NCBI GenBank assembly: GCA_041690495.1
Contig: JAWLHE010000001.1
Span: forward strand, 11,369-75,368
DNA length: 64,000 nt
Direction of reading: 5' to 3'
Source of the DNA: Alphaproteobacteria bacterium
Lineage (GTDB): Bacteria; Pseudomonadota; Alphaproteobacteria; CACIAM-22H2
How positions within the stretch are numbered: position 1 is the first letter of the stretch; the number at the start of each line of letters is the position of its first letter. A model generated the notes under the pieces. The model was not told where the DNA came from. It made no database searches and saw only the letters and a program-made list of their open reading frames with translations. A program made the translations under genes and the position numbers. Below, piece after piece: positions 8,065 through 47,523 of this stretch.

Positions 8065-8073
8065 GGCTCGAGA

Positions 8074-9195: not shown

Positions 9196-9242
9196 ACTAC
9201 TCTTCTTATGAATCTATAAGGAAGTGAAGGTAGTGGATACCT

Positions 9243-28659: not shown

Positions 28660-28888
28660 ATACGCGTCTCAAATGAAACGACCGCATCCTGAGGCGCGAT
28701 TTCGCGATCAGTGAAATCGCGTCTCGAAGGATGGGCCACGGGCACAATACGTTGCAATTCAATGGTGTACGAGCAGATCACCGGTCTCCAACGGCCATTT
28801 CTGCTCAAGGTTGTGTCACCCGCGCTGCCGCCTGGGGCGGCCAGCGGCGGTTTTGCCCCAGGGATACGCCCGTGCTAGAAGCACGCCC

Positions 28889-29569: not shown

Positions 29570-29595
29570 AGCATAACGGGATATCGGAGAGGTCG

Positions 29596-30432
29596 GTGGG
29601 GACTCCTTCGCACCAATTCACCGTCCGCTTCTGGGGCGTCCGCGGGTCAATTCCATGCCCCGGCCCGGAGACGGTGCGCTATGGCGGCAATACCGCCTGC
29701 GTCGAAATGCGCTGCGGCGAGCGGCTGCTGATCTTCGACGCCGGTACCGGCCTGCGGCCCCTCGGCGCCCATCTCGACGCACTCGGCACGGTGAGCGCCG
29801 ACCTGTTCTTCACCCACACGCATTTCGACCATATCTGCGGCTTGCCGTTCTTCAGCTCGGCGTATGCAAAAACCAATCACTTCCAGTTCTGGGCGGGTCA
29901 TCTGCTGCCCGACCACACGCTGCGCTACGTGCTGTCCGAGATGATGATGGCGCCGCTTTTCCCGATCCCGATCAGCGTGCTCGGCGCCGACATCTCGTTC
30001 CATGACTTCCGGGCCGGCGAGACGCTCGAGCCGGGGCCGGGCATCGTCATCCGGACCGTGGCGCTGAACCATCCGAACGGCGCCACCGGCTATCGCGTCG
30101 AATATGCCGGAAAGTCGGTGTGTTACGTGACAGACACCGAGCACGTGCCTGGCACGCCGGACAAGAACGTACTCGGGCTGATCGCCGGTGCTGATCTGGT
30201 GATCTACGATGCGACCTATACCGACGACGAGTATCCCGATCATGTCGGCTGGGGCCATTCGACCTGGCAGGAAGGCGTACGGCTGGCCGACGCGGCGCAG
30301 GTGAAGCAGCTCGTCATCTTTCATCATGATCCCGGCCATGACGACGAAACCATGGATGCGATCGCCGCCGCGGCCGGCAAGGCGCGCCCCGGCACGCTCG
30401 TCGCCCACGAAGGCATGATCCTCAAGCCGTAG
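29596..30432 (+). CDS. MBL-fold metallo-hydrolase
   Basis: GTG start; HxHxDH motif (FFTHTHFDHICG); 278 aa; 26 bp after the response regulator. Confidence 0.85.
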   Translation: MGTPSHQFTVRFWGVRGSIPCPGPETVRYGGNTACVEMRCGERLLIFDAGTGLRPLGAHLDALGTVSADLFFTHTHFDHICGLPFFSSAYAKTNHFQFWAGHLLPDHTLRYVLSEMMMAPLFPIPISVLGADISFHDFRAGETLEPGPGIVIRTVALNHPNGATGYRVEYAGKSVCYVTDTEHVPGTPDKNVLGLIAGADLVIYDATYTDDEYPDHVGWGHSTWQEGVRLADAAQVKQLVIFHHDPGHDDETMDAIAAAAGKARPGTLVAHEGMILKP

Positions 30433-30542
30433 CGGAGCTCTCGCCTGCTGAGAATTTTCTTGGGGCGCCATCCTCGACTTACCCTCTCCCGCGAGCGGGA
30501 GAAGGCGGGGGATGAAGGTCCCGCCGCCGCCAGAGATTTCAC

Positions 30543-31388
30543 ATGACCTGGCGCACGAACCCGCTGTTGCGATCGGCCTGGATGACCCTGTCCGCCGCGG
30601 CGGGACGGCCGCGCGGATTCGTCATTCCCTACCGCTACGCGGACTCGGTCGAGGCGCCGCCATCCTATCCCGCCCTCGCGCCGCTGTTCGCCGCGGCGGA
30701 ACCGGAGTTCCGCGCACTGCTGGTGCTGGCGCAGGGGCATCTCGAGCGGCTGCTGACGTTCGGCGGGGCGAGCCCGCCGGCGCCGCGCTTCGACCAGGAC
30801 TGGTTTCCGCGACTCGATGCGGCGATCGCCTACACGATGGTGCGGACGCTGCGCCCGGCCCGTATCGTCGAGATCGGCTCTGGCCACTCGACGCGTTTCC
30901 TCGCGCGCGCGGTGGCCGACGAGCGTTGCGCCACCAGGATCGTCGCGATCGATCCGGCGCCGCGCGCGACGATCGAAGGACTGCCGATCGAATTCGTCCG
31001 CTCGACGGTGCAGCGCGCGGGCCTTGACCCATTCCGCGGCCTCGCCGCCGGCGACATCGTCTTCGTCGACTCCAGCCACATCCTGATGCCGGGCACCGAT
31101 CTCGACGTCGTGCTCAATGCGGTGCTGCCGGCGCTGCCGCCCGGCGCGCTGGTGCATTTCCACGACATCTTCCTGCCGGAGGGCTATCCGGCGGACTGGG
31201 CATGGCGCGGCTACAACGAGCAGAACGCGGTCGCGGCGCTGGCGATGTCGGGTGGCTACCGCCTTCGCTGGGCCTCGCACCATGCTGCGACGCGCCTGAC
31301 GGCCGGGATCGCCGCCGCTGGCCTCGATCGGCTCCCTCTCGTCCCGGGCGCCCGCGAAACCAGCCTGTGGCTGGAAAAGGTGCGTTGA
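30543..31388 (+). CDS. class I SAM-dependent methyltransferase (Methyltransf_24-like)
   Basis: Motif I IVEIGSGHSTRFLA and acidic motif II (VFVDSSH); 281 aa. Confidence 0.65.
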   Translation: MTWRTNPLLRSAWMTLSAAAGRPRGFVIPYRYADSVEAPPSYPALAPLFAAAEPEFRALLVLAQGHLERLLTFGGASPPAPRFDQDWFPRLDAAIAYTMVRTLRPARIVEIGSGHSTRFLARAVADERCATRIVAIDPAPRATIEGLPIEFVRSTVQRAGLDPFRGLAAGDIVFVDSSHILMPGTDLDVVLNAVLPALPPGALVHFHDIFLPEGYPADWAWRGYNEQNAVAALAMSGGYRLRWASHHAATRLTAGIAAAGLDRLPLVPGARETSLWLEKVR

Positions 31389-31404: not shown

Positions 31405-32559
31405 TCAGCGATAGGGGTCGGCCGCGTCGCGCAGGCCGTCGCCGAGGAAGTTGAAGGCGAGCACGGTGATAATCACCGGGACCACCGGGGCCAGCAGCCA
31501 CGGATAGAGCGCCACCACGTTGATGTTCTGCGCCTCGGTCAGCAATACGCCCCACGAGGTGATCGGCGGGCGCAGGCCGAGGCCGAGGAAGGACAGCGCC
31601 GTCTCGCCGAGGATCATCGCCGGGATCGACAGGGTGGCCGAGGCGATGAGATGGCTCATGAAGCTCGGAAGGAGGTGGCGGCCGATGATGCGGCGCGGGC
31701 TTGCTCCCATCAGCACCGCCGCAGTGCAGAAATCCTCCTCGCGCAGCGCCAGCAGCTTGGAGCGCACCGCACGCGCCAGCCCCGTCCAGTCGATCAGGCC
31801 GAGGATGACGGTGATGCCGAAATAGATCAGCAGCGGATTCCACGACACCGGCAGCGCCGCGGACAGCGCCATCCACAGCGGCAGTTCGGGGAACGAGCGG
31901 ATGATCTCGATCACGCGCTGGATGACGTTGTCGACCCAGCCGCCGTAATAGCCGGCCAGCCCGCCCAGCGTCATGCCCAGAGCGAAGCTGATCGTGATGC
32001 CGATCAGCCCGACGGTGAGCGAGATGCGCGCTCCGTAGATCAGGCGCGAGAGCATGTCGCGGCCGAGCCGGTCGGTGCCGAGCAGGAACAGCACGCCGTC
32101 CTGCGCCGGGCAGACCAGATGCAGATTCGCCGGCACCAAGCCCCAGAAATCGTACGGGTCGCCGCGGCAGAAAAAGCGCAGCGGATAGACCCGATCGTGA
32201 TCGGGCGTGTACTCGCGTTTCAGGGTGTCGAGGTCGAGATTGTACTTGAAGCCGTAGACGAACGGCCCGATGAAACTGCCCTCGTGGAACAGGTGAACGG
32301 TCTGCGGCGGCGCGTAGATGAAATCGGTGTTGCGCGTGTAGAGGCTGTAGGGCGCCAGGAACTCGGCGACCAGGATCGACGCATACATGACCAGCAGGAT
32401 GACCCCGGAGATGACCGCGAGCCGGTGGCGCTTGAGCTTCCACCACATCATCCGCCACTGCGAGGCCATGTAATAGCGCTCGAGTTCCGGCGTCAGCCGC
32501 TCCGCCTCCTGCGGGTCGAACGGCGCCGTGCTGGCGTAATGCTCGAGCCGTGTGCTCAT
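31405..32559 (-). CDS. yejE: ABC transporter permease, YejE/DppC-OppC family
   Basis: 384 aa; BPD-transporter permease signature; N-terminal extension typical of YejE. Confidence 0.88.
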   Translation of the reverse strand: MSTRLEHYASTAPFDPQEAERLTPELERYYMASQWRMMWWKLKRHRLAVISGVILLVMYASILVAEFLAPYSLYTRNTDFIYAPPQTVHLFHEGSFIGPFVYGFKYNLDLDTLKREYTPDHDRVYPLRFFCRGDPYDFWGLVPANLHLVCPAQDGVLFLLGTDRLGRDMLSRLIYGARISLTVGLIGITISFALGMTLGGLAGYYGGWVDNVIQRVIEIIRSFPELPLWMALSAALPVSWNPLLIYFGITVILGLIDWTGLARAVRSKLLALREEDFCTAAVLMGASPRRIIGRHLLPSFMSHLIASATLSIPAMILGETALSFLGLGLRPPITSWGVLLTEAQNINVVALYPWLLAPVVPVIITVLAFNFLGDGLRDAADPYR

Positions 32560-33554
32560 CTGGTGGCGCCGCCATGCAGCCGGATGCGCGGGTCGAGAGC
32601 GGCCAGCGCCAGGTCGGACAGGAACACGCCGACCACGACCAGAAGCGCCTCGATCATCAGGAACGAGCCGGCGAGATACATGTCCTGGCTCTGCAGCGCG
32701 CGCAGCAGCATCGGGCCGTTGGTCGGCAGCGACAGCACCACCGAGACGATCGCGGCTCCGGAGATCAGGCTCGGCAGCAGGCTGCCGATATCGGCGATGA
32801 ACGGATTGAGCGCCATGCGCAGCGGGTATTTGAACAGCAGGCGGCGCGGCGGCAGCCCCTTGGCGCGCGCCGTCACGACATACTGTTTCTGCAGTTCGTC
32901 AAGGAGGTTCGCGCGCAGCCGCCGGATCATCGCCGCGGTGCCGCCAAGGCCGATGACGATCACCGGAATCCACAGGTGCTCGAGGATCGAGCCGAGCTTG
33001 CCCCAGGACATCGGCTTGTCCATGTAGACCGGATCCATCAGCCCGCCGATCGACGTGCCGAACACGGCATTGCCGACATAGAGCAGCACCAGCGCCAGCA
33101 GAAAGCTCGGCGTCGCCAGACCGAGGAAGCCGACGAGGGTCAGCCCGTAGTCGCCGAGCGAATACTGGTGAGTCGCCGAGTAGATGCCGATCGGAAAGGC
33201 GACAACGTAAGTGAAGATCACGGTCGCGATGGCGACGATGAAGGAGAGCGCAAGCCGCTCGCCGATGACGTCGCGCACCGGCAGGTTGTATTCGAAGGAC
33301 CACCCCAGGTCGCCCTGGACGAGGCCGACCACCCAATGGAAATACTGCTCGATCGGCGGCCGGTCGAGGCCGTACTGCTCCCGCAGGAAAGCGATCCGCT
33401 CCATGCTGGCGCCTTCGCCCTGGGCCTGCAGCTCCATCATCATCGTCGTCAGATAGTCGCCCGGCGGAAGCTGGATGATGGTGAAGACGATGGCGCTGAT
33501 CGCGACCAGGGTCGGGACCATGATCAGAATGCGGCGGATGAGATAGCTCAGCAT
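32556..33554 (-). CDS. yejB: ABC transporter permease, YejB/DppB family
   Basis: Likely start MLSYLIRRIL…; DppB-type permease with EAA-like loop; 4-bp overlap with yejE. Confidence 0.88.
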   Translation of the reverse strand: MLSYLIRRILIMVPTLVAISAIVFTIIQLPPGDYLTTMMMELQAQGEGASMERIAFLREQYGLDRPPIEQYFHWVVGLVQGDLGWSFEYNLPVRDVIGERLALSFIVAIATVIFTYVVAFPIGIYSATHQYSLGDYGLTLVGFLGLATPSFLLALVLLYVGNAVFGTSIGGLMDPVYMDKPMSWGKLGSILEHLWIPVIVIGLGGTAAMIRRLRANLLDELQKQYVVTARAKGLPPRRLLFKYPLRMALNPFIADIGSLLPSLISGAAIVSVVLSLPTNGPMLLRALQSQDMYLAGSFLMIEALLVVVGVFLSDLALAALDPRIRLHGGATR

Positions 33555-33567
33555 GCAAGGCCCGTGG

Positions 33568-35480
33568 TCATTGCGCCGCCGCCGTGTTCGGCGCATCGGC
33601 GAACCAGAACGTGTCCGGATGATAGATGCCGAAGAATGCGCCGGGGTCGAAATTGTAGACGCCGTCGGTCGGCACGTTACGCAGCCGATTGGATACGACC
33701 ACCGGCTGCTTCACCGCGGCGATCAGCCCGATCGAATAGACCTGCTCGGCGTGGATGGCGAGCATCCTGTGCCACACGGCGCGGCGCTGCTCGGTCGTGG
33801 TGGCGTGCTGCCATTCCGCGTTCAGTTTCGCGAGCTCGATGGCGTGCGGGTCGTCCACCTTCTCGCCGCTGGCGCCGCCGGTTTCCGCATACTGCCCCCA
33901 TTTCGGCCATTGCAGGTGCTGCTGAGAGGTCGGCGCAAGCTCCGCGGGCGACATGTCGGCGGTCGGGATGCCGTTCTCCAGGCCGATCCAGATGGTCATG
34001 ACGCTCTCTCCGGAGAAGACCCGGTTGCGGAACATCTCGCGCTGCAGCGGACGCGAATACAGCTTGACGCCGACGTCGAGCCAGGAATCGTGGATCAGCT
34101 CGAGCACGTCGGTCTGCTCGGTCTCCTCTCCTGCTGTCTCGACGATGACCTCGAGCGGGCGGCCATCGGGCAGAAGCCGCACGCCGCGGCTGTCGCGTTT
34201 GGTGAGTCCGATCTCGTCGAGCAGCCGCTTTGCCTCCGCCCTGTCGAACTTCGCATAGGCGTCGCGATACTCGGGGCGATAGAGCGGGCTTTTGGGCAGG
34301 ACCGTGTTCTGCCCCTCGATCGCCAGGCCGAAATAGACGACCTGGTTGATTTCGTGCCGGTTGATCGCGAGCGACAGCGCACGGCGGAAGCGCACGTCGC
34401 GGTTGAGCTCGCGCCAAACGCGGTCGTTGGCGTTGAGGTTGGGATAGAGCGCCAGATGCGCCCCCTTGGCGGTATCCCAGAGATGCACCGAAAAGTCGTT
34501 GCGCTTCGCCGCCTGCCTCAGGAAGGTGAAATTGCTGAAAGAGAGATTGCGTGCCTGGATATCCGATTCGCCGGCGCCGGTCTTGGCGGGAATCAGCCGG
34601 CTGTCGGACACCGACGCGACGACGCGGTCGATATAAGGGAGCTGGCGCCCGTTGACGTCGATACGGTGGAAGTACGGGTTGCGCACGAACACGAAACGGT
34701 CGGCCGGCGGATGGGTCTGCGGCACCCATGGCTCGAGCGAGGGCAGATCCGGATTGTCGTTGCGGTACTGGTTGTCGAGGCGATTGTGTAGCTGCGCCCA
34801 CCCGCGCACATGGGCATTGCGAACCGCCTCCTCGAGTTTCGCGGTTTCGGCGTAGCGCTTGTGGAAGCGCTTCAGGTAATGCGCGGGCCGATAGATATAG
34901 AGCGGTGCCGCGCCGGCGAGCGCCTGCAGGAAATAGGGGTTGGGCGTTGGCCAGGCGTAGCGGACCGTGACCTCGTCGATGATCGTCACTTCGGGCGGCT
35001 TGCCGTCTATGATCAGGCTGCGCGGGGGCCCGACGGGCGACAGCTTCTTGTCGTTGGCGACGTCTTCCCAGTAGTAGCGGAAATCCTCGGTCGTGAAGGG
35101 ATGGCCGTCCGACCAGCGGTGGCCGCGGCGGAGCTTCAGGGTGAAGATGCGGTTTCCCGTGTTCTCGATGCTCTCGAGAATGTCGGGCTTGAGCTCGAGA
35201 TTGGCGTTGTAGCCGACCAGGCGCGCATAGCCGTAGACGACCATCATCCGGATGTCCTGGCTGCGGCCGATCAGGAGCCGTGCCTCGCCGCCGTGCCGCC
35301 CCGGCTCGGCGCCGGGCCGATCGGGTTTCAGCACGAGCGGCACCTCCGGCAGGCGTTGCTCGACCGGCGGCAATCTGCCTTCGCGGACATCCTTCTCCAG
35401 CGCGGGGCTGTCGATCAGCGCCGCTGCCGCCGGGCCGCCGAGCGTCGCGGCCAAAAGAATTGCGGCAAGCAGCGCGCGGA

Positions 35481-35484
<4 letters not shown>
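33568..35484 (-). CDS. yejA: extracellular solute-binding protein, family 5 (YejA-like)
   Basis: ATG at 35482-35484 (MIRALLAAILLAATLGGPAAA signal peptide); 638 aa SBP_bac_5 homolog; ATGA overlap with yejF. Confidence 0.85.
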
Positions 35485-37377
<1,893 letters not shown>

Positions 37378-37394
<17 letters not shown>

Positions 37395-37875
37395 TACCCA
37401 ATGCCCCGAAATTCGCTCGCGTGGCGTCCGACAGACTCAGCCCTGCGGCGCGCGCGGCTTCGGCAGCCTGGCGCGCGATTTCGTTGAAACCTTCGAGGGT
37501 GGAATCGAGGCGGATAGTCCCGCTATCGGGACCGCCATTCCCTTTGAGCATCAACTGCATCCACCCTCCCGTCCGGTCGAATCGCGTTGAGTAGTAATTA
37601 AGCCGGACGTCCTTCAACTTCTCCCACGCCAACCTAGCCCGCCATGGTGAAGAAAGCGATATGTCGTGCGCTGTGACGGTTATCACAGCTACGCTCCGCC
37701 GCCACGTCCGGATGCCGAAAATGGCGAAAAGGGTGGCCAGCGGCAACAGAACGAACTGCGCCGCTGACGTCGCGGGGATGGCGAGCGCGGGGCCGAGCGT
37801 GAGTGCGAGCCCGGCGCCGGCGCGGATGAAGTCGCCGGTCAGCGACTGCCGCGGATAGCGATGGTAGGCGGTCAT
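37378..37875 (-). CDS. hypothetical membrane protein (two N-terminal TM helices plus soluble domain)
   Basis: 165 aa; balanced composition; 4-bp overlap with the upstream deacetylase gene and 17-bp overlap with yejF. Confidence 0.5.
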
Positions 37876-38618
37876 GATCGGAACAGCGCGGCCGCGTCGA
37901 CCAGCCTTGCTGCGGGGTGGCGGCGCAGCGCCGCCAGGAACGCATCGACAAACGCCCAGGCGGCCTCATCGTGGGCGAGGTGGTGCGTCAGCAGGCCGGT
38001 CGGCTCGTCGGGATCGGCGTCGCCGATGCGGCGGGCGCGCAGATGAGCGACGGCCAAGCCGAGCGCAACGTCGCTGCCGCCGAAGGCGCGGGTGGTCCAG
38101 TTCATGACGTCGACATGGGTATTGACCCGGACGAGTCCGGGTACCGCGCGTCTGCGGGGGCCGTAGGTCGACAGGCCGATATAGCCGGCGGCGGGGAGGG
38201 CAGCGGCAAGCTCGCCTGCGATACGGTTATGCGGCGGAACCAGCGCGCGGGTCCAGCGGCCGAACAGCGCGTCCATGACGAGCTGGCCGCGTGCGAGCTC
38301 GCCGAGCATAAAGGACAGCGGCCGGTGCGGCCCGAGCTCGGCCTTCGAGGCGCCGACCGGCGCATGGTTCGCATGCATCCAGCCGTGCTGGACCACGGTC
38401 ACCAGAGGTCCTTCGATCCGCTTCCCGAGCTCGGGCTCGGCCCGGGCGGGGATCACCGCGATGGTGATCGGCGCGTCGTGCCTGCGGTGCAGCTCGAGCA
38501 GCCGGTCGAGGGCCGGCGTCGGCGCCGTTGCGTCGTCGTCGCGCCACCAGAAAGTTGCAGTCCGGCCCGATTCGCGCCAGCATTCGAGTTCGCCGGCCAG
38601 ATCCGCCCAGGAGCTCAA
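37872..38618 (-). CDS. polysaccharide deacetylase family protein
   Basis: 248 aa; N-terminal WWRDDD and His-rich motifs typical of this deacetylase family. Confidence 0.65.
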   Translation of the reverse strand: MSSWADLAGELECWRESGRTATFWWRDDDATAPTPALDRLLELHRRHDAPITIAVIPARAEPELGKRIEGPLVTVVQHGWMHANHAPVGASKAELGPHRPLSFMLGELARGQLVMDALFGRWTRALVPPHNRIAGELAAALPAAGYIGLSTYGPRRRAVPGLVRVNTHVDVMNWTTRAFGGSDVALGLAVAHLRARRIGDADPDEPTGLLTHHLAHDEAAWAFVDAFLAALRRHPAARLVDAAALFRS

Positions 38619-39772
38619 GCGCCGGCACCCCGCGTCGTCAGCCAGGTGCGGATCAGCCGGGCGGTTTCCGCCGCGCCGTCGCAGCGCAGCGCCCCGGACT
38701 CGGGCCGCTTCATCGCCGCCGCGCGGTCGATCGCCCCGGCGAGGGTCGCCGGCGTCAGTGTCGACTCCGCGACCATCTCGGCCCAGCCGCGATCGACCAG
38801 TGCGGCGGCGCGCACGGTCTGCTCGGTTTCCTGGCCGGCGGCGAACGGCACCAGTACGGCACGCGCGCGCGCGTTGAGAATGTCCATCACCGTATTATAG
38901 CCAGCCTGCGCCACCGCCACATGGCAGCGCGCGAGCAGGCCGGGAAAATCGGCACGCGCCGGCTCGACGATACAGCCCGCACTGGTGGCTGCGGCCAATT
39001 CCATCCGGATCGCGGCAGGAAGATTGGGGCCGACCAGCAGACGCCAGACGCGGCTGCCTTGCGCGCTTTGCAGCCGTGCGGCGAGCGCTGCGCGCAGCAG
39101 CGGCGCGCCGACGGCGCCACCGCCGACCGAGACGACGATCTCGCCTTCGCCATGGCCGGCCGGCGGCTCTGGTGCGGCGCCATTCGCAACATAGCCGGTA
39201 TAGACCACGCGGTCGGCAATGCGGTCCTCGGGAAAGCTCTTGGCCAAGGGGAGGAACCCCGGATCGCCGTGAACGAGCACGTGGTCGTACCAGGCGCGGA
39301 CCCGCTCGGCCATCTCGTAGAGCTTGCGTTCGTCGCTCTTCTGCGCGAGCACGTCGCGCACCGACGACAGGATCAGCGGCTGCGGCCGTTGCCGCCGCGC
39401 CGCGGCGATCAGCGGAATCAGCTCGAATGCCAGCATTCGCCGCCCGAGCGGGAACAGCTCGGTAATGACCACATCGGGACGCGTGGCAGCGAACCACGAT
39501 AGCAATGCCTCGCTGCGCGCCGCCCGCCAGGCGTCGTCGACCGGCCGACCCTCGGCATCGACCAGTTTCCTGAATGTCTCGTCCGTGGCCCGCATCGGCG
39601 GGAGCTGCACCAGTCGTGCGCCGCCGCAATCGAGGTCGGGGATCGGCGGGCCGCCTGAAACGAGCACGACGTCGAAGCCGTCGCGTGCCAGTGCCGCGGA
39701 GATCACCGCCGCCCGGCGCAGATGCCCGCTGCCGAGCAGATGCTGAACGTGAAAGAGGATGCGCGCGGTCAT
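38615..39772 (-). CDS. glycosyltransferase, GT28/MurG-like C-terminal domain (GT-B fold)
   Basis: ATG at 39770-39772 (MTARILFHVQHLLGSGHLRR…); C-terminal AGYNT motif; paralogous to the 42868..44094 gene. Confidence 0.75.
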   Translation of the reverse strand: MTARILFHVQHLLGSGHLRRAAVISAALARDGFDVVLVSGGPPIPDLDCGGARLVQLPPMRATDETFRKLVDAEGRPVDDAWRAARSEALLSWFAATRPDVVITELFPLGRRMLAFELIPLIAAARRQRPQPLILSSVRDVLAQKSDERKLYEMAERVRAWYDHVLVHGDPGFLPLAKSFPEDRIADRVVYTGYVANGAAPEPPAGHGEGEIVVSVGGGAVGAPLLRAALAARLQSAQGSRVWRLLVGPNLPAAIRMELAAATSAGCIVEPARADFPGLLARCHVAVAQAGYNTVMDILNARARAVLVPFAAGQETEQTVRAAALVDRGWAEMVAESTLTPATLAGAIDRAAAMKRPESGALRCDGAAETARLIRTWLTTRGAGA

Positions 39773-40356
39773 TGCACCTCGAGCGGCAGGTTGAGCTTCT
39801 CGACGCGCGGCACGCCTCCCCTGTCCAGCGCGAACAGGTGCAACGCGTACAGGTCGAGTCCTTCGGGCGGCTCGCCGGTCATATCCCAGTTGACGGCGCG
39901 CGCATAGATGGCGCGGATGACGCCGCGGTGGGTCACCGCCAGGGTCGGCCGAGCCGCGGCGCCGATCTCCCGCAGCAGCGGCGCAACGCGCGCCTGCACG
40001 TCGCGGGGACTCTCGCCGCCTGGCGGACGGAAATCCAGCCCGCGCGCCTCGTTCGTCGCCAGATCGGTGCCGTGCGCGTCGCGCAGCTCGGACAGCGTAC
40101 GGCCCTGGAACTCGCCCCAGTCCATCTCGATCAGGCGCGGATCGGGCGACACCACCAGGCGCAGCATTGCCGCGGTGTCGAGACAGCGCCGCAAGGGCGA
40201 GGACAGCGCGCGGAACCCGGCATAGGCGTCGGGGATGCGGCGCCGCAGGAGATCGGCGCGGCTCTCGTCGAGGAGCGGGACGTCGCTGCGCCCCTGCAGC
40301 CGGCCGGCCTTGTTCCACGCCGTCGGCGCGTGGCGGATCAGCGCCAGCAGGGTCAT
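39769..40356 (-). CDS. histidine phosphatase family protein
   Basis: RHG motif (LALIRHAPTAWN), second His motif (AVTHRGVIRA); ATGA overlaps on both sides. Confidence 0.8.
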   Translation of the reverse strand: MTLLALIRHAPTAWNKAGRLQGRSDVPLLDESRADLLRRRIPDAYAGFRALSSPLRRCLDTAAMLRLVVSPDPRLIEMDWGEFQGRTLSELRDAHGTDLATNEARGLDFRPPGGESPRDVQARVAPLLREIGAAARPTLAVTHRGVIRAIYARAVNWDMTGEPPEGLDLYALHLFALDRGGVPRVEKLNLPLEVQ

Positions 40357-41501
40357 GCGCGCTCCGCGGCCACGGCCTGCAGGATCCGGTCGAGCGCGGC
40401 GCCGGCGGAAACGACGTCATGCTCCGCCGCAACTTTTGCCATCGCCGCGGCACCATAATCGAGACGCCGCTCGGGTGCAGCGAGCAGCGTGTCAACCGCC
40501 GCGGCGAATGCCGCCGCATCGCCCGGCGGCGTCAGCAGACCGGTTCGCTCGTGGACGATCAGCTCGGGCACACCGCCGCTTCTGCCCGCGACCGCCGGCA
40601 ATCCCGCCGCCTGGGCCTCGAGAATGGCCATTCCGTAGGCCTCGTTGATTGCCGGCCAGACCAGGAGATCGGCTGCCGCGAGAAGGCCGGGCAGCCGCCC
40701 GGGATCGACCGCGCCGACGTGGACGACGCGATCGCGGACCGGCGCCAGTGCCGCCTCGACCTCCCGCCGCGCCGGTCCATCGCCGATGGTCAGGAGCCGC
40801 CAGGGTCTCGCGCGCAAGACGTCCAGGGCTGCGCCGAGCACGCGGTACGAGGCCAGCTTGTCGCCAGCACGCATCATCGCGACGGCGACGAGCCAAGGCT
40901 CGTCGGACGGGAGATGGAAGCGCCCGGCGATTTCGCGTCGCTGGTCGGCGCGACCTTGCGCCGCCGTGGCGAATGCAGCCGATTCGAGGAATGGCTTCAG
41001 GTGGCGCAGACGCGCAGCGTCGCGCAGATGCGGGATGACGCCGTCATCGTCGGCGGGATTGAGCGAGATTACGGCGTCGGCGCGCTTGAGCGCCGCAAGC
41101 GTCGCTTCGTGACCGAGCGACCACGGGCCGCCAGCGCGCTTTGCTGCGACCGATGCCTCGACGACGACGTACGGAATGCCGAGCCGGGCGGCGACGCGTG
41201 GCCCGATCCAGTCCGGCGCCTTGTGATAGAGGTGATAGGTCAGCCATGCGCGGGGACGCCGCGCCGGCGTACGGGCGCCGAGCTGCTCGATCAGCCGCGC
41301 CGCGAGACGTCCACCGAGCTCCGCCAGACGGTGCTGGCGTTCCGTATCGCCGCCGCCGTCATAACTGCGCAGCCGTGCGGCGAGCTCTACCTCGTGTCCG
41401 GCGCGGCTCAGCGCCAGCCGAAGGAGCTGTGCCACGCGCCGGTCGCCGGACGGGACCGGATGATCGGGCGGTTTGAGCGGGGCGTAGAAGGCGATGCGCA
41501 T
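40353..41501 (-). CDS. glycosyltransferase family 4 (GT-B, retaining)
   Basis: 382 aa; C-terminal E-x7-E region (…INEAYGMAILEAQAAGLPAVAGRSGGVPELI…). Confidence 0.85.
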   Translation of the reverse strand: MRIAFYAPLKPPDHPVPSGDRRVAQLLRLALSRAGHEVELAARLRSYDGGGDTERQHRLAELGGRLAARLIEQLGARTPARRPRAWLTYHLYHKAPDWIGPRVAARLGIPYVVVEASVAAKRAGGPWSLGHEATLAALKRADAVISLNPADDDGVIPHLRDAARLRHLKPFLESAAFATAAQGRADQRREIAGRFHLPSDEPWLVAVAMMRAGDKLASYRVLGAALDVLRARPWRLLTIGDGPARREVEAALAPVRDRVVHVGAVDPGRLPGLLAAADLLVWPAINEAYGMAILEAQAAGLPAVAGRSGGVPELIVHERTGLLTPPGDAAAFAAAVDTLLAAPERRLDYGAAAMAKVAAEHDVVSAGAALDRILQAVAAERA

Positions 41502-41519
41502 GCGGTCGGCGAAGGTCGG

Positions 41520-42815
41520 TTACCTCGCCGCTTCGCGCGCCGGCGCGCGTCCGTCTGCAATCGTCGAAGACAACAGAAGGGCGGCAATGCGGCCGATGCC
41601 GCGCTCGAGCGGGAAGTCGCGGCGCACCCGCGCCTCGCCGGCGGCCGCGAGGCGCGCGCGCAGGGCGGGGTCGCTGACAAGGCGTGTGATTGCCGCTGCC
41701 ATGGCGGCGGGGTCGCCCGGCGGAACCAGTGTGCCGGTGACGCCGTCCGCGACGAGCTCGGGTATCGCCGAGACGGCGGTCGCCGCCACCGGGCAGCGCT
41801 GGCTCAACGCCTCGAGCAGGACGTTGGGCAGGCCGTCGCGATCGCCGTCGCCGCTGATCCTGCTTGCCAGAACGAACAGGTCGGCCTCGCGATAGGCCGC
41901 GCGCACCACGTCCTCGGTCTGGGCGCCGCGCCACGCGATGCGGTCTGCGAGGCCGCGCCGCTCCGCCTCGCGCCGGAGATCGGGGAGCAGCGGTCCGCCG
42001 CCGATATGGATCATCCGCCAGTGCAGGTCGCGCGGCAGCAGGGCCAGAGCCGCGAGCAGGTCGCCGTAGCCCTTTTTCGGCACCGCGCGCCCGACCGACA
42101 GCAGGATGACCGGATCGGCCGGCGCCGTTCCGTCGCGGGGCGGGCGCGATGCGTCGTGCGGTGGGAAACGCGCGGCATCGATGCCGTGGTAGACGAGCTC
42201 GACTTTCGCCGGCGCGGCAGCCAATTCGGCGAGGTGCTCGCGTCCCGCACGCGTGCAGGTCACCGCCCATGCCGCGTCGTCGAGCTTCTCGCGTTTCTCC
42301 CAGCCGGGCGTGGTCCAGATGTCCTTGGCGTGCGCCGACACGCTCCACGTCAATCCGGCGAGAAGCGCGGCATAGCGCGCGACCGATGCAGGCGTGTGCA
42401 GAAAATGCGCGTAATAGTGCACGACATCCGGGCTGCGCTCCGCCGCCAGCACCAGCGCCTGGCCGAAGCGCCGGATGCGATTGGGCGTCGGATCGCGAGC
42501 GAGGTCCTTGAGCCAGGCGGCGCGTGCGCGCGCATAGCCGGGCAGACGCCGCACCGCACGCCAGGCGCGCCAGACCCGCGCCGGCTCGCGCCACAGATAT
42601 TCGGGCAGATACGTCAGCGCGGCGCCGACTGACCGGTTGAGCGGGTGCACGCGCTTGTCGGTAGGATGGCGCAGCGAATAGATGCGCAGGTGCACGCCGC
42701 TGCGCTCGAGCGCGCGCAACTCCTGGGCGATGAAGGTTTCCGACAGGCGCGGCCAGCCCTTGACGACCACGCCGATTGCGGCGACGGATGGCTGGCTCGT
42801 CGGCTCGTGAGGCAT
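41520..42815 (-). CDS. glycosyltransferase family 4
   Basis: ATG at 42813-42815 (MPHEPTS…); about 431 aa; GT4 C-terminal domain (…GLPNVLLEALSQRCPVAATAVSAIPELV…). Confidence 0.85.
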   Translation of the reverse strand: MPHEPTSQPSVAAIGVVVKGWPRLSETFIAQELRALERSGVHLRIYSLRHPTDKRVHPLNRSVGAALTYLPEYLWREPARVWRAWRAVRRLPGYARARAAWLKDLARDPTPNRIRRFGQALVLAAERSPDVVHYYAHFLHTPASVARYAALLAGLTWSVSAHAKDIWTTPGWEKREKLDDAAWAVTCTRAGREHLAELAAAPAKVELVYHGIDAARFPPHDASRPPRDGTAPADPVILLSVGRAVPKKGYGDLLAALALLPRDLHWRMIHIGGGPLLPDLRREAERRGLADRIAWRGAQTEDVVRAAYREADLFVLASRISGDGDRDGLPNVLLEALSQRCPVAATAVSAIPELVADGVTGTLVPPGDPAAMAAAITRLVSDPALRARLAAAGEARVRRDFPLERGIGRIAALLLSSTIADGRAPAREAAR

Positions 42816-42867
42816 GAAGCAATCTAGCGTCGAAGCGGCGCCCGTCGGAAGCAGGATGCGCAGACCT

Positions 42868-44094
42868 TCAGCCGTGATCGGCGAGGGCGAGACGGCGTGC
42901 AGCCGGCTGGACGACGCGGTCGGGCAGCCAGCGGTTGACCAGGCGCCCGACATTCTCGAAACCGTCGAGCAGACCGGGCACCACCATTTCCGACGGGCGG
43001 GGCTGGCCGGGCAGGCGGCGCAGCGCGTCCGCCATCAACCGCGCGTCGCGCTTGCCGTCGTCCTGCAGCATGCGGACGAGGCCGAGATCCTGGGCACGGC
43101 TGGCGCGGATGTACTGTTCGAGCCGGGGTGCCGTGCGCGGCACGATGATCGCGCGCTTGTTGAACGAAAGGATCTCGCAGAAGGTGTTGTAGCCGCCCAT
43201 CGCCACCACGCCGGCGGCGCGGTCCATCAGCTCCTCGAGATGCGTGTCGAAGGTGATCGCCTCGACGTGCCGCAGACGCCGCGCGCGCTCGATGAAATCG
43301 GTCTGCAGCTCGGGCTGCATGAACGGTCCAAGGACCAGCACCGCACGGTGCGGCAGGTTGCGGTCGTATTCGTAGGCGCGCAGCACCCAGTCGACCAGCG
43401 TCTCGCCGTCGCCGCCGCCGCCGGTCGTCACCAGGACATAGGGCTCCTCGGGATTCTCGTGCCGGCGCGTGCGCTGCGTGGCGACCGGCACCGTGCGCGG
43501 CAGATAGCCGGTGTAGCTGATCTTGCGCTTGACCGAGCGAGGGACCGCGATGCCCGCAAGCGGATCGCAGATCTGCGGCAGCCCGTAGATCCAGATGTCG
43601 TCGTATAGATCGCGCAGCGCCGGCAGCACGTTCTTACGTTTCCATTCCGGCTCCAGCAGCACCGGGTCGTCCATTACGTCGCGCAGGCCCAGCACCAGCG
43701 GCACGCCCATCGACTTGAGCATCACCAGCGTGTCGTGGACCTCGCCGCGGAAGCCGAGGGGTTCCTTGTCGACCAGGAACAGGTCGGGGCCGAACGCCTC
43801 CGCCGTATGGCGGATGATCGAGGAGCGGATGCCGATCGTCTGCTGGATGTCGATGTGCAGGTTGAGCGAGGTGTATTCGCCGTTGCGCAGCTTGATGACG
43901 CCGGGCACGCGCACGAAATCGACGCGGGTCTTGAAGTCGAAGCTGCCGATGATCGGCGAGCCCGATAGGATCAGGACCGAGAGATCCTTGTTGCGTTCGA
44001 CCAGTGCATGCGCGAGGGCGCGGCAGCGGCGCAGATGGCCGAGGCCGAGCGTATCGTGGCTGTAGATGAGAATCCGGGAGCCGCCGCTTTTCAT
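42868..44094 (-). CDS. glycosyltransferase, GT28/MurG-like C-terminal domain (paralog)
   Basis: Start MKSGGSRILIYSHDTLGLGHLRR… (paralogous N-terminus to the 38615 gene); MGGYNT motif; about 408 aa. Confidence 0.75.
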   Translation of the reverse strand: MKSGGSRILIYSHDTLGLGHLRRCRALAHALVERNKDLSVLILSGSPIIGSFDFKTRVDFVRVPGVIKLRNGEYTSLNLHIDIQQTIGIRSSIIRHTAEAFGPDLFLVDKEPLGFRGEVHDTLVMLKSMGVPLVLGLRDVMDDPVLLEPEWKRKNVLPALRDLYDDIWIYGLPQICDPLAGIAVPRSVKRKISYTGYLPRTVPVATQRTRRHENPEEPYVLVTTGGGGDGETLVDWVLRAYEYDRNLPHRAVLVLGPFMQPELQTDFIERARRLRHVEAITFDTHLEELMDRAAGVVAMGGYNTFCEILSFNKRAIIVPRTAPRLEQYIRASRAQDLGLVRMLQDDGKRDARLMADALRRLPGQPRPSEMVVPGLLDGFENVGRLVNRWLPDRVVQPAARRLALADHG

Positions 44095-44290
44095 GCGCTG
44101 TGCTATCTCGCTCAAGGGCTGGCTCTCCGTCGCTCCCCAGCGGAGGACTATGGCATAAGGCCGCGGGGGCGAAAAAGTCACCTTTTTTATTGACTGGGGC
44201 TACAAAGTGCGCGGATTTTGGATCGATTTTACAATTCAGCGCAAGGGCTTAATGATTCGGAGCATTATTGGAGGGCCTTACCGCGGGCTC
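44095..44290. promoter_or_regulatory. AT-rich divergent promoter island between the glycosylation operon and the PCuAC-like/ABC gene set
   Basis: Local AT-rich stretch (…gaaaaagtcaccttttttaTTGACTggggctacaaagtgcgcggattttggatcgattttacaattcag…) in a 65% GC background. Confidence 0.45.
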
Positions 44291-44886: not shown

Positions 44887-47523
44887 ATGGAATCGAACCT
44901 CTATCGCTTCGTTCTGAAATACGCGCCGCGCGAAACCGCATGGGTCTGCACGCTTACCGTGCTGTCGATGCCGTTCTACTACCTTTCGCTCGAGGTGCCG
45001 AAGACGATCGTCAACAAGGCGCTGCTGCAGAAGGACATTACGTTTCCGACGGCCATTCTTGGTGTGGAGGTAGGCCGCGTCGCCTACCTGTTCCTGCTCT
45101 GCGCCGCATTCTTCTTCCTGTTCGTCACCAATACCGGCCTCAAGCAATACATCAATACGCTGAAGGGCAGGCTGGGCGAGCGGTTGCTGCGGCGATTGCG
45201 CTATGACCTGGTCTCGCGCGTCCTTCGTTTTCCGCTGCCCCATTTCCGCAAGGTTTCGGCCGGCGAGATCATCCCGATGGTGACATCGGAAGTCGAGCCG
45301 CTCGGCGGCTTTATGGGCGACGCGATTGCGCAGCCGCTGATCCAGGGCGGCACGCTTCTGGTGATCATCACCTTTCTGTTCATGCAGAATCCCTGGATCG
45401 GCCTGGCCGCGATCTCGCTCTATCCGCTGCAGGCCTACCTGATCCCCAAGCTGCAACGTCGCGTGAACCAGCTCGGCAAGGAGCGCGTACGTGCGGTGCG
45501 CAAGCTGTCGGAGCGCATCGGCGAGGCCATCCAGGGCGTCCAGGAAGTCCACGCTCACGGCACCACGACCTGGGAGCGTGCCGACTTCTCCGACCGGCTC
45601 GGGCTGATCTTCAAGATCAGGTTCGAGATCTACCAGCGCAAATCGTTCGTCAAGTTTCTGAACAATTTTCTCAACCAGATGGTGCCGCTGCTGTTTTATT
45701 CGCTCGGCGGCTATCTGGTGATCCGGGGCGACCTGTCCGTCGGCGCGCTCACAGCGGCACTGGCGGCGCACAAGGACATGTCGGCGCCATGGAAAGAGCT
45801 GCTCGACTATTACCAGCAGAGTCAGGATTCGAAGATCAAGTACGAGCAGGTCACCGAGCAGTTCAAGCCGGAGAACATGTTCGACGAGACGCTGGAGCAG
45901 CCGATCGATGAGCCGCCGGGCCGGCTTGAAGGCGAGATCGAGGCGACCAATCTCGCTCTCTACGAGGACGCCCAGACCAGGCTGCTTGAAAGCACCAGCT
46001 TCAGAATCGCGCCTGGAGAGAAGGTGGCGCTCGTCGGCCCTTCAGGCGGCGGCAAGGAGGCGGCTGCCATGCTGCTCGCGCGTCTCTATCAGCCGAGCGC
46101 CGGCCGCATTGCTGTCGGCGAGCGGGATCTGCGGACGATTCCGAGTGCGGTGCTCGGCGCGCGCATCGGCTATGTCGGACCGACCGCCTATCTCTTTTCC
46201 GCCAGCGTGCGGGACAACCTGAGCTATGGCCTGCGCCAGCGGCTGGTGAAGGCCCGCGAGGATGCCCAGTTGCGCCAGAAGCAGCGCTGGCTCGCCGAGG
46301 CGGCGCGCGCGGGCAACCTCGCGCTCGACACCCAGGCCGAATGGATCGACTGGCGCGGCGCGGACCTTTCTGGCGATCAGGGTCCGACCGAGGCGATGAT
46401 CGAAGCGCTGTCGCTCGTCGGCCTCTCGGAGGATCTCTACCACTTCGGTCTGCGCGGGACGATCGATCCGAAGAAGCGCAGCGACATCGCGGATTGCATC
46501 GTAAAGGCGCGCGCGGCGCTGCAGGAGCGGATCAGGGATCCCGAGCTGGCGCCGCTGGTCGAGGTGTTCGATCCGGGGCGCTACAACAACAATGCGACGA
46601 TGGCGGAGAACCTGCTGTTCGGAACGCCGGTCAGCGCCGCCTTCGACATCGATCGCCTCTCCGAGAACGCGTATGTGCTTGGCGTGCTCGACAAGGTCGG
46701 CCTCACCGATGATCTGGTCGCCATCGGCCGCGAGGTCGCGACCACCATGATCGAGATCTTCGCCGACCTGCCGCCCGGGCACGAGTTCTTCGAGCAGTTC
46801 AGCTTCATCTCGTCGGACGAGCTTCCGGAATTCCAGGCGCTGCTCGGCCGTGTCGACGGCAAGGGCATGACCCCGGCGGACCGCGCGCGCCTGCTCACGC
46901 TGCCTTTCAAGCTGATAGAGGCGCGCCACCGTCTGGGTCTGATCGACGACGCCCTCAAGGCGCGAATCCTCGAAGCGCGGCACGTCTTCCGCGAGGATCT
47001 GCCCGAAACGACACGCTCGGGTATCGAGTTCTTCGATCCGGCGGCCTACAATGCCGCAACGTCGCTGCAGGACAATATCCTGTTCGGGAAGCTCGCCTAT
47101 GGGCAAGCACGGGCCGCCCAACGGGTCGGCAAGCTCATCGTCGAGATCCTGGACGAGCTCCATCTCCGCCCAGCGGTGCTCGAAGTCGGGCTCGAATACC
47201 AGGTCGGCGTGGGCGGCGCGCGCCTGAACCAGGGCCAGCGCCAGAAGCTGGCGATCGCGCGATCTCTGCTCAAGCGCCCGGATATCATGATTCTCAACGA
47301 GGCCACGACGATCTTTGATTCGACGACGCAGGCGCACATCATGGATGGCATTTTCAAGGCGTGCGAAGGCCGCACCGTGATCTGGGCGCTGCATACGCCG
47401 GCGATGGCCAAGCACTTCGATCGTGTCCTCGTTTTTGCGGACAACCGCCTTGCAGAGTCCGGTGATTTCGGCGAGCTCGGGCGCCCGGGCACGCTGTTCA
47501 CCGAGCTGCTCGCGGCGGCATGA
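44887..47523 (+). CDS. ABC exporter (type I TMD + NBD) with degenerate ATPase motifs and triplicated helical-subdomain segment
   Basis: 878 aa; 6-TM exporter domain; Walker A GPSGGGKE, signature LNQGQRQK, Walker B IMILNEAT, H-loop IWALH; three tandem copies of the Q-loop/ENIxFG segment (46169-46231, 46560-46623, 47026-47088). Confidence 0.85.
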   Translation: MESNLYRFVLKYAPRETAWVCTLTVLSMPFYYLSLEVPKTIVNKALLQKDITFPTAILGVEVGRVAYLFLLCAAFFFLFVTNTGLKQYINTLKGRLGERLLRRLRYDLVSRVLRFPLPHFRKVSAGEIIPMVTSEVEPLGGFMGDAIAQPLIQGGTLLVIITFLFMQNPWIGLAAISLYPLQAYLIPKLQRRVNQLGKERVRAVRKLSERIGEAIQGVQEVHAHGTTTWERADFSDRLGLIFKIRFEIYQRKSFVKFLNNFLNQMVPLLFYSLGGYLVIRGDLSVGALTAALAAHKDMSAPWKELLDYYQQSQDSKIKYEQVTEQFKPENMFDETLEQPIDEPPGRLEGEIEATNLALYEDAQTRLLESTSFRIAPGEKVALVGPSGGGKEAAAMLLARLYQPSAGRIAVGERDLRTIPSAVLGARIGYVGPTAYLFSASVRDNLSYGLRQRLVKAREDAQLRQKQRWLAEAARAGNLALDTQAEWIDWRGADLSGDQGPTEAMIEALSLVGLSEDLYHFGLRGTIDPKKRSDIADCIVKARAALQERIRDPELAPLVEVFDPGRYNNNATMAENLLFGTPVSAAFDIDRLSENAYVLGVLDKVGLTDDLVAIGREVATTMIEIFADLPPGHEFFEQFSFISSDELPEFQALLGRVDGKGMTPADRARLLTLPFKLIEARHRLGLIDDALKARILEARHVFREDLPETTRSGIEFFDPAAYNAATSLQDNILFGKLAYGQARAAQRVGKLIVEILDELHLRPAVLEVGLEYQVGVGGARLNQGQRQKLAIARSLLKRPDIMILNEATTIFDSTTQAHIMDGIFKACEGRTVIWALHTPAMAKHFDRVLVFADNRLAESGDFGELGRPGTLFTELLAAA

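Follow-up and report, generated by a model that had tools for sequence, protein, structure and literature searches.

We analyzed a stretch of 64,000 nucleotides (hereafter, the window; contig JAWLHE010000001.1, positions 11,369 to 75,368) from an alphaproteobacterium of the CACIAM-22H2 lineage, and describe in it an array of eleven genes that joins a set of glycosyltransferases and other enzymes to an ATP-binding cassette (ABC) importer, along with a divergently transcribed pair of genes for an ABC-exporter-like protein and a cyclic-nucleotide-binding protein. The eleven open reading frames (ORFs) at 31405-44115 on the minus strand are intact and co-directional and have a high GC content at third codon positions. 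In the order of transcription they encode a glycosyltransferase with a GT28-type domain (GT28a), two glycosyltransferases of the GT4 family (GT4a and GT4b), a histidine phosphatase, a second GT28-like enzyme (GT28b), a deacetylase-like protein, a 165-aa membrane protein, and the ATPase, binding protein and two permeases of the importer. Pfam and NCBIfam confirm the domain assignments of these genes. Coordinates of all features are collected in Table 1.

Table 1. Genes and features of the array, its divergent neighbors and its convergent flank (coordinates in the window; NBD, nucleotide-binding domain)
Feature	Coordinates	Strand	Basis of assignment
GT28a, GT-B glycosyltransferase with GT28-type C-terminal domain, RedA ortholog	42868..44115	-	Pfam, identity
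GT4a, GT4 glycosyltransferase, RedB ortholog	41520..42815	-	Pfam Glycos_transf_1, 108 bits
GT4b, GT4 glycosyltransferase	40353..41501	-	Pfam Glycos_transf_1 and Glyco_trans_1_4
Histidine phosphatase, branch 1	39769..40356	-	Pfam His_Phos_1, 131.6 bits
GT28b, second GT-B glycosyltransferase, GT1/GT28-like, RedAh ortholog	38615..39772	-	Glyco_tran_28_C, 44.3 bits
CE4 (NodB-fold) de-N-acetylase-like protein, 248 aa, cytoplasmic	37872..38618	-	AlphaFold, Foldseek
165-aa membrane protein between enzyme and transporter genes	37378..37875	-	AlphaFold, pLDDT 91
Fused double-NBD ATPase, PepT (Opp/Dpp/Nik) importer, OptD ortholog	35481..37385	-	two ABC_tran and two oligo_HPY
Periplasmic family-5 binding protein, OptA ortholog	33568..35484	-	SBP_bac_5, 180 bits
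Permease, OptB ortholog	32556..33554	-	BPD_transp_1 and BPD_transp_1_N; 64-67% identity to Rhizobium/Sinorhizobium orthologs
Permease, OptC ortholog	31405..32559	-	OppC_N and BPD_transp_1; 69-70% identity to Rhizobium/Sinorhizobium orthologs
Promoter-like extended -10 element TGCCATAGT	44147..44155	-	32 nt upstream of the TTG start
878-aa ABC-exporter-like protein (transmembrane domain and NBD), divergent	44887..47523	+	ABC_membrane and ABC_tran
Stand-alone cyclic-nucleotide-binding protein, always beside the exporter-like gene	47545..48003	+	cNMP_binding, 72.5 bits
Response regulator (OmpR-type), convergent flank	28811-29569	+	Pfam
MBL-fold hydrolase, convergent flank	29596-30432	+	Pfam
Methyltransf_24 methyltransferase, convergent flank	30543-31388	+	Pfam

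The gene junctions, in the order of transcription, measure 52, 18, -4, -4, -4, -4, -8 or -17, -4, +13 and -4 bp, where negative values denote overlaps. The 4-bp overlaps lie at 40353-56, 39769-72, 38615-18, 37872-75, 35481-84 and 32556-59, and a further overlap at 37378-94. An earlier note on this DNA had proposed the eleven-gene array with ATGA or longer overlaps at every junction after the first two. The array itself is confirmed and its junctions lie near the positions proposed; most of the overlaps also hold, but the one at 38615-18 reads TTGA, and the binding-protein and permease genes, thought to overlap at 33554-68, are separated by a 13-bp gap, the permease starting at 33554 with 332 aa and matching all homologous gene calls. 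The more likely start of the ATPase is ATG 37385, with an 8-nt overlap that gene calls at homologous loci also show; the alternative TTG 37394 would give 17 nt. For the first gene, the most likely start is TTG 44115, located 21 nt upstream of ATG 44094, because a GGAG-type ribosome-binding site and a TTG or GTG start are conserved there in relatives.

The promoter-like element upstream of the first gene is confined to the head of the array. The sequence TGNCATAGT has a single occurrence in the window, at 44147-44155, and recurs in ~20 related loci from Rhodospirillales, Reyranellaceae, Pelagibius and Rhizobiaceae metagenome-assembled genomes (MAGs), at the matching position ahead of the first glycosyltransferase gene and with a T-rich or TTGAC-like stretch ~16-17 nt upstream; it probably serves as the promoter of the operon. 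No site for a regulator was found. Inside the array, a consensus scan against shuffled sequences gave terminator-like and promoter-like sites not above the number expected by chance. A riboswitch or leader RNA is unsupported, as no Rfam match was obtained in 28000-49000 and the 5' untranslated region would be only ~30 nt long. The tight junctions, the lack of internal signals beyond chance, the conserved element at the head only and the synteny described below all support the proposal of the earlier note that the eleven genes form one transcription unit. The GC content is 0.70-0.73 in the enzyme genes (38000-43000) and 0.64-0.68 in the transporter genes (32000-38000), a split that may be due to the amino-acid make-up of membrane proteins and not to separate origins.

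Conservation of the array across Proteobacteria

The family of the deacetylase-like protein contains more than 3,200 homologs, and a scan of one genome per species identified a relative in at least 538 species genomes. We fetched 80 loci and mapped them by tblastn with all window proteins; a locus counted as assessable if at least 9 kb flanked the seed on each side (n=40). The glycosyltransferase block was found in 37 of these 40 loci. Among the 37, the importer core is present in 31, the exporter-like gene (~880 aa) in 32 and the cyclic-nucleotide-binding gene (~150 aa) in 32. Seeding with the binding protein instead, we found all three homologs analyzed (62-65% identity, picked solely for their long contigs) in the full cluster. 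Thus the adjacency of glycosyltransferase and importer genes, which the earlier note had proposed to look for in relatives, is seen from both sides, at 31/37 and 3/3 loci. The co-occurrence spans Alpha-, Beta- and Gammaproteobacteria. Many carriers are plant- or rhizosphere-associated, and marine and free-living taxa are represented too. The locus closest to the window belongs to an uncultured Rhodospirillales MAG (L010 in our numbering of loci).

The gene set stays together when its order changes. Four enzyme genes are inverted in Azospirillum, the blocks are shuffled in Marinobacterium and the order is reversed in Rhizobium and Sinorhizobium, and in some Rhodospirillales MAGs GT28b and the deacetylase gene are separated by the co-directional exporter-like and cyclic-nucleotide-binding genes. 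The junction between the enzyme and importer halves is conserved as well: over 52-57 independent loci the approximate median spacing is ~-7 nt between the deacetylase and 165-aa genes and ~-13 nt between the 165-aa and ATPase genes, and where the 165-aa gene is lacking the deacetylase gene directly abuts the ATPase gene. The link from deacetylase to ATPase gene also persists in loci that have the exporter-like and cyclic-nucleotide-binding genes among the enzyme genes. The 165-aa family itself consists of 146 proteins, and in 6/6 members examined (40-77% identity, long contigs) its gene lies between the deacetylase-like and ATPase genes of the same cluster.

These observations bear on the simplest alternative, in which an ordinary Opp-type transporter for peptide nutrition lies fortuitously downstream of an unrelated glycosylation operon. 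PepT-family transporters are indeed very numerous in Alphaproteobacteria, and the importer half has a lower GC content than the enzyme half. However, the co-occurrence persists across three classes of Proteobacteria and through several independent rearrangements, the translational coupling at the junction is conserved, and every binding-protein homolog analyzed resides in the cluster. Chance adjacency is untenable because the synteny holds from both sides and survives rearrangement, the junctions are conserved and the promoter-like motif stands at the head; the synteny effectively refutes it, and we regard it as extremely improbable. The comparative data strongly support the array as one conserved functional unit, in which glycosyltransferases and ABC importer are linked in function.

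Enzymes, importer and exporter-like protein

Neither a signal peptide nor a transmembrane segment was detected in any enzyme of the array, the deacetylase-like protein included, and none of the enzymes reaches an NCBIfam equivalog cut-off. GT28a matches the Pfam domain Glyco_tran_28_C with 30.5 bits (cut-off 22) and is 51-53% identical to redA in the R. etli, R. leguminosarum and S. meliloti regions; its family profile gave no match to PDB sequences. GT28b is 45-46% identical to redAh (pRL110048), and its family profile matches YjiC, MurG, CalG and OleD. The two proteins are paralogs (24% identity, hhalign E 1e-33). A MurG identity for this pair was considered and rejected, since the match has 36.3 bits against a cut-off of 250.25 and aligns the C-terminal donor-binding half alone. 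In Rhizobium, redA and redAh are very likely misannotated as MurG, because the window orthologs fall far below the MurG cut-off.

GT4a and GT4b are members of the GT4 family, with 108 and 87 bits for Glycos_transf_1 (cut-off 26.4). GT4a is 52-54% identical to redB and has a variant EX7E motif, DGLPNVLLE; its nearest solved relatives are sucrose-phosphate synthase (SPS), PimB', MshA and BshA. GT4b possesses the EX7E motif EAYGMAILE at residue 287 and is closest to the solved SPS Tll1590, BshA, PimB' and MshA, while its best NCBIfam models are BshA- and MshA-type, every one below cut-off. The histidine phosphatase belongs to branch 1, its sequence beginning with MTLLALIRHA and thus carrying the N-terminal RH motif. 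Its nearest solved relatives are alpha-ribazole-5'-phosphate phosphatase and the glucosyl-3-phosphoglycerate phosphatase of M. tuberculosis, and it misses the CobC equivalog cut-off (106 vs 162.9).

The deacetylase-like protein scores weakly on the Pfam polysaccharide-deacetylase domain (18.7 vs cut-off 23.1) and was assigned by structure. Its AlphaFold model (pLDDT 90.6) has the NodB-homology fold, and its top Foldseek matches are all CE4 de-N-acetylases or esterases (Bc1960, PdaC, PgdA, ArnD and a chitooligosaccharide deacetylase; E 4e-8 and below, probability 1.0, TM-score 0.55-0.70). The residues invariant in the family alignment, D27-D29 (DDD), H78/H82, R132, D170/W174 and H212/H213, fit CE4 motifs 1-5 by inspection alone. 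As it lacks a signal peptide, the protein acts in the cytoplasm, like NodB and ArnD. The enzyme set as a whole is reminiscent, by family membership, of pathways that glycosylate a phosphorylated acceptor, dephosphorylate it and deacetylate a GlcNAc residue, such as SPS/SPP, MshA/MshA2/MshB and GpgS/GpgP.

Several enzyme-related variations were noted in other genomes. Two loci (L046, at 7910-9274 on the plus strand, and L068, in the same place) have an extra 454-aa ORF between the ATPase and binding-protein genes, the C-terminal half of which looks like an FkbM-type methyltransferase by sequence reading, and one FkbM and one class I methyltransferase are annotated within the S. meliloti pSymB cluster (L096), a hint at O-methylation of the product in some lineages. 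An orphan copy of GT28a, 68% identical, is present without the rest of the cluster on the Azospirillum oryzae plasmid NZ_CP054622.1 (3549-4793, L098), next to copper-binding genes and Tn3 and IS6 transposases. Finally, ten Escherichia plasmid records, including H88 (E. coli NZ_CP012501.1) and H89 (Escherichia sp. NZ_AP025752.1), contain a gene for a protein labelled 'glycosyl transferase family 28', which shares ~36% identity with GT28a across 82% of its length.

The 165-aa protein encoded at the junction is predicted to have a pair of transmembrane helices, then a small beta-sandwich and a C-terminal helix. The beta-sandwich has weak Foldseek matches, mostly to PH and PTB domains; no Pfam or NCBIfam match was found for the window protein, and 3/29 family members match bPH_6 weakly.

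The importer falls into the PepT (Opp/Dpp/Nik) branch, as it consists of a family-5 binding protein with a signal peptide ending in AAA-A, two BPD_transp_1 permeases and an ATPase with oligo_HPY tails, in which both sets of Walker A, signature and Walker B motifs are canonical. The ATPase is 61% identical to optD and the binding protein is 49-51% identical to its Rhizobium and Sinorhizobium orthologs. The best of the 42 PDB matches of the binding protein (E <= 1e-3) are 5IPW, which is an uncharacterised 'OppA' of Thermotoga maritima, SPH1118 (E 2e-70) and an alpha-galactoside binder (6EPY, E 2e-28), the latter two aligned over the full length. SPH1118 of Sphingomonas sp. A1 binds pectin oligosaccharides, not peptides (PMC9314435). 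We argue for a carbohydrate rather than a peptide ligand of the window importer, because the ligand-defined relatives of its binding protein bind oligosaccharides. In fifteen loci (L007, L008, L009, L014, L022, L036, L037, L047, L049, L064, L066, L069, L070, L072 and L079) the ATPase and both permeases are kept without a binding-protein gene between them, and in L082 a copy of this gene is located ~3 kb downstream of the permeases.

YejABEF of E. coli and S. meliloti is an importer of microcin C, phazolicin and NCR peptides, and the earlier note had read the window importer as Yej-type. BLASTP of the binding protein against E. coli YejA found no significant similarity (best E = 1.2), and the solved YejA structures 7Z8E and 7ATR (PMC10128002) are absent from its 42 PDB matches. 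The ATPase has a higher score for the NCBIfam model of GsiA (608 bits) than for that of YejF (542 bits), both below cut-off (834 for YejF). The permeases score 130.7 on YejB (cut-off 445) and 113.5 on the microcin C permease model NF011596 (cut-off 439), which was taken as the YejE model as its 341 positions equal the length of E. coli YejE. The gene order is ATPase, binding protein, permease, permease here vs yejA-yejB-yejE-yejF in E. coli K-12. In addition, a genuine YejABEF is present in S. meliloti (PMC10128002) besides a cluster of the present type, known in rhizobia as opt/red, on pSymB, which implies that the two are separate systems. On these sequence comparisons the importer is not Yej-type and is assigned to the PepT branch in general, which leaves the suggested link to microcin C and antimicrobial peptides without basis.

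The same results weigh on the wider idea that a YejABEF-type transporter takes up microcin C or antimicrobial peptides as part of an operon that couples envelope glycan remodelling to peptide uptake and resistance. It could draw on the 45% identity of the ATPase to E. coli YejF and its 542 bits on the YejF model, and on the fused double NBD and the large binding protein (~600 aa or more), which resemble Yej. Paired with a peptide importer, a cationic amino-sugar glycoconjugate would form a coherent resistance island, and the Sap system is a precedent for such a reading, as are gpgSDF (PMC12713373) and Yej itself (PMC10128002). Given the absence of sequence matches to YejA or its solved entries, the better fit to GsiA, the missed cut-offs, the different gene order and the presence of both systems in S. 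meliloti, we consider this idea very improbable.

The divergent exporter-like protein matches models of MsbA (best), HepA and glucan exporters, all below cut-off and in two stretches, 73-497 and 724-876; its NBD is split by a ~225-aa insertion. The fold-level domains of a type IV (ABCB/MsbA-like) exporter are present, and the canonical NBD motifs are not. The protein is 38% identical to its Rhizobium ortholog, and the adjacent cyclic-nucleotide-binding protein is 54% identical to pRL110046. An anti-phage defence function was rejected: PADLOC gave only generic similarity of the cyclic-nucleotide-binding domain to Pycsar effectors and a partial NBD match, nothing was found for the enzymes, and a weak GT4-conflict Pfam match stands at its cut-off.

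The convergent genes downstream of the array (28811..31388) show a looser, lineage-restricted association. They lie beside the operon in Rhodospirillales and Kiloniellales loci, and among the 40 assessable loci the Methyltransf_24 gene was found in 9, the MBL-fold hydrolase in 14 and the response regulator in 8. The hydrolase has weak similarity to cyclic-nucleotide phosphodiesterases (NCBIfam 41.7 bits vs 400), and its homologs give faint Pfam matches to Apyc1. Together with the cyclic-nucleotide-binding protein and an adenylate cyclase encoded in the rhizobial clusters (see below), it suggests a cyclic-nucleotide theme. A PCu(A)C copper-chaperone gene at 44207-44764 on the plus strand separates the operon from the exporter-like gene. 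It has the same place in L001, L003, L091 and L092 and is probably a lineage-specific passenger, because it is absent from most other loci.

Rhizobial relatives and a possible role of the system

A search of annotated plasmids with GT28a returned 274 records, including 143 from Rhizobium and 80 from Sinorhizobium, pSymB among them. On R. etli CIAT 652 pA and R. leguminosarum (johnstonii) 3841 pRL11, genes for an adenylate cyclase, the ATPase, the binding protein, two permeases, redA, redB, a third glycosyltransferase, the ABC exporter and the cyclic-nucleotide-binding protein follow each other on one strand. By tblastn on pRL11, pA and pSymB, nine window genes have orthologs there with 38-70% identity, full coverage and the same neighbourhood, so that the window cluster is a member of the opt/red type. 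The names come from the tables of Wheatley et al. (bioRxiv 10.1101/2020.05.07.082560): pRL110046 (FNR/CRP family, the cyclic-nucleotide-binding protein), pRL110047 (ABC export), pRL110048-50 (redAh, redB, redA), pRL110051-54 (optC, optB, optA, optD), pRL110055 (cyaA) and pRL110056 (UDP-sugar dehydrogenase). Unlike that of the window, the rhizobial cluster has its importer genes ahead of the enzyme genes and contains no second GT4, histidine phosphatase, CE4 deacetylase or 165-aa protein. It adjoins genes for the adenylate cyclase and a UDP-sugar dehydrogenase, neither of which is adjacent in the window. On S. meliloti pSymB, GT4b-like, CE4-like and MBL genes are kept ~13 kb away. The Clr-regulated polysaccharide cluster of S. 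meliloti (nodP2-smb21248, PMC5498481) was considered as a counterpart and is a different locus.

Insertion-sequencing data are available for the R. leguminosarum genes (bioRxiv 10.1101/2020.05.07.082560). There, pRL110046, pRL110047, redB and pRL110056 are essential or defective in nodule bacteria and bacteroids, optB and optC are neutral, as are importer mutants in nodules, and loss of the importer is advantageous on roots. The product is likely relevant to symbiosis, because the redB, exporter-like, cyclic-nucleotide-binding and sugar-dehydrogenase genes matter in nodules and importer loss is advantageous on roots. Since importer mutants lack a nodule defect, the importer would not be needed to make the product, and recapture or sensing fits better than supply of a precursor. 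The same data argue further against import of antimicrobial peptides, as optA and optD mutants of R. leguminosarum show no nodule defect although plant antimicrobial peptides attack bacteroids.

We propose that the operon, the exporter-like protein and the cyclic-nucleotide-binding protein form a module for synthesis, export and re-uptake of one compound, and put the probability of this reading at about one half. The four soluble cytoplasmic GT-B enzymes (two GT4 and two GT1/GT28-like), the phosphatase and the CE4 deacetylase would build a small amino-sugar glycoconjugate. A phosphorylated acceptor would probably be glycosylated by a GT4 enzyme and then dephosphorylated, as in SPS/SPP, MshA/MshA2 and GpgS/GpgP, and the deacetylase would turn a GlcNAc-type residue into a free amine. 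The product may then leave the cell via the ABC-exporter-like protein, and the co-transcribed PepT-family importer would take the product or a derivative back, for recapture or sensing and not for peptide import. Export is possibly under cyclic-nucleotide control, which fits the cyclic-nucleotide-binding protein encoded next to the exporter-like protein, the adjacent adenylate cyclase of rhizobia and the nearby MBL-fold hydrolase of Rhodospirillales. The layout of the operon, the co-inheritance of its parts, the family and fold of each enzyme, the cytoplasmic or periplasmic location of the proteins and the non-Yej identity of the importer are established here; what the product is, which way each transporter works and to what end, and the cyclic-nucleotide control are inferred.

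The importer could instead bring in an acceptor, as the earlier note had suggested. In the form considered here, an external oligosaccharide, for example one derived from plants, or a peptide would be imported as a precursor or acceptor, glycosylated and exported. The co-transcription of importer and enzymes and the plant or rhizosphere association of many carriers agree with this, as does the absence of nucleotide-sugar and acceptor-synthesis genes from the cluster within the window, and relatives of the binding protein bind plant oligosaccharides (PMC9314435). However, loss of the importer in R. leguminosarum does not reproduce the nodule defect seen on loss of redB or the exporter, the full enzyme set persists in lineages whose operon has no binding-protein gene, marine and free-living carriers exist, and the phosphatase may point to an endogenous phosphorylated acceptor. 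The insertion-sequencing data thus disfavor acceptor import, which we consider unlikely.

A more serious rival is a lipid-linked product, such as an aminoglycolipid similar to GlcN-phosphatidylglycerol or hexosamine glycolipids, for which the exporter-like protein would be an MsbA-like flippase and the PepT transporter would have a separate or retrograde role. The combination of a GT4 enzyme, a CE4 deacetylase and a flippase matches gpgSDF (PMC12713373). GT4b weakly matches the GlcNAc-PG synthase model (51.7 bits), the nearest GT4 structures include PimA and PimB', MurG-like GT28 enzymes use lipid acceptors, the exporter-like protein scores best on MsbA, and a membrane-anchored PH-like protein is present. 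Yet the cluster contains no acyltransferase, priming phosphoglycosyltransferase or lipid-synthesis gene, all the NCBIfam matches are far below cut-off, and the histidine phosphatase has no clear role in such a pathway. A soluble binding protein of an oligosaccharide-binding branch also suits a soluble ligand better. We therefore hold a lipid-linked product to be unlikely, if a little less so than acceptor import.

Besides this rival, several observations weigh against a module for synthesis, export and re-uptake. Most family-5 binding proteins bind peptides, the importer genes of Rhizobium are annotated as oligopeptide transport, and 5IPW, the nearest solved relative of the binding protein, has no known ligand. 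Several lineages, among them Reyranellaceae, Kiloniellaceae/Pelagibius and some Acidiferrobacterales, have an operon without the binding-protein gene. The NBD motifs of the exporter-like protein are degenerate: Walker A reads GPSGGGKE, the signature LNQGQ (not LSGGQ) and Walker B ILNE (not ILDE). The degeneracy is family-wide (homologs in L008, L010, L013, L022, L033, L095, L097 and others), and in some homologs the Walker A lysine is replaced by R, M, I, A or G. This suggests that the protein is not an ordinary ATP-driven homodimeric exporter, and because of these motifs it may not be an ATP-driven exporter at all. In the Rhizobium screen redA and redAh are neutral (bioRxiv 10.1101/2020.05.07.082560), and phenotypes of the Rhizobium version, in which the phosphatase, the deacetylase, one GT4 and the 165-aa protein are missing, may not transfer to the window cluster. 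We found no paper that identifies the product or characterises the chemistry of the cluster in any organism.

The module for synthesis, export and re-uptake can be extended more speculatively to a 'make, release, take back' loop controlled by cyclic nucleotides, in which a small amino-sugar glycan would serve as a signal or a shared extracellular good. The exporter-like protein, with its NBD devoid of canonical ATPase motifs, might be gated by the cyclic-nucleotide-binding protein rather than driven by ATP hydrolysis, the PepT importer would be dedicated to re-uptake, and the glycan would act in autocrine or kin signalling. We regard this extension as doubtful; if true, it would constitute an undescribed glycan-based autocrine or kin-signalling system that is widespread in Proteobacteria and needed by Rhizobium in legume nodules.

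If the proposed module exists, hundreds of soil, marine and plant-associated Proteobacteria, among them Azospirillum, Rhizobium and Sinorhizobium, would share a pathway for making, exporting and taking up again an amino-sugar glycoconjugate, and its importer would be routinely mislabelled as an oligopeptide or Yej importer in genome annotation. The case is also a further indication that 'peptide' binding proteins of family 5 often have carbohydrates as ligands. The analysis also points to an ABC-exporter-like family with systematically degenerate ATPase motifs that is always paired with a cyclic-nucleotide-binding protein.

Comparison with characterized systems

All parts of the cluster come from known protein families, and gene names exist for its rhizobial counterpart, but the combination as a system appears to be uncharacterised. 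The earlier description of the locus as a non-standard arrangement therefore holds relative to characterised systems, but the arrangement is widespread and is already annotated as opt/red.

The importer shares with YejABEF the PepT branch, a fused double-NBD ATPase, two permeases and a large cluster-C binding protein. It differs in that the permease is only 29% identical, and the identity of the ATPases corresponds to generic NBD conservation. SPH1118 and the Agrobacterium protein 6EPY are the closest ligand-defined relatives of the binding protein, and combine peptide-binder annotation with carbohydrate ligands (PMC9314435); in contrast to the window importer, they have roles in catabolism or chemotaxis and are not encoded with glycosyltransferases.

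Among biosynthetic systems, gpgSDF of Pseudomonas aeruginosa combines in one operon a GT4 enzyme that adds GlcNAc, a CE4-type deacetylase that bares the amine and a proposed flippase (PMC12713373). It consists of three genes, uses a lipid acceptor and an MprF-like flippase, and has no phosphatase, GT28-like enzymes or importer; the match to its synthase model (51.7 bits) compares with a cut-off of 480. The two-step synthase/phosphatase pathways SPS/SPP, MshA/MshA2/MshB and GpgS/GpgP resemble the window cluster in that its GT4 enzymes are near SPS, MshA and BshA, its phosphatase is near GpgP and its deacetylation step would parallel MshB. They differ in that no curated cut-off is reached, the deacetylase is of the CE4 and not the LmbE type, and the window cluster has two extra GT1/GT28-like enzymes and two transporters. 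We therefore treat the resemblance to these pathways as a lead to the likely chemistry of the cluster rather than as membership in any of them.

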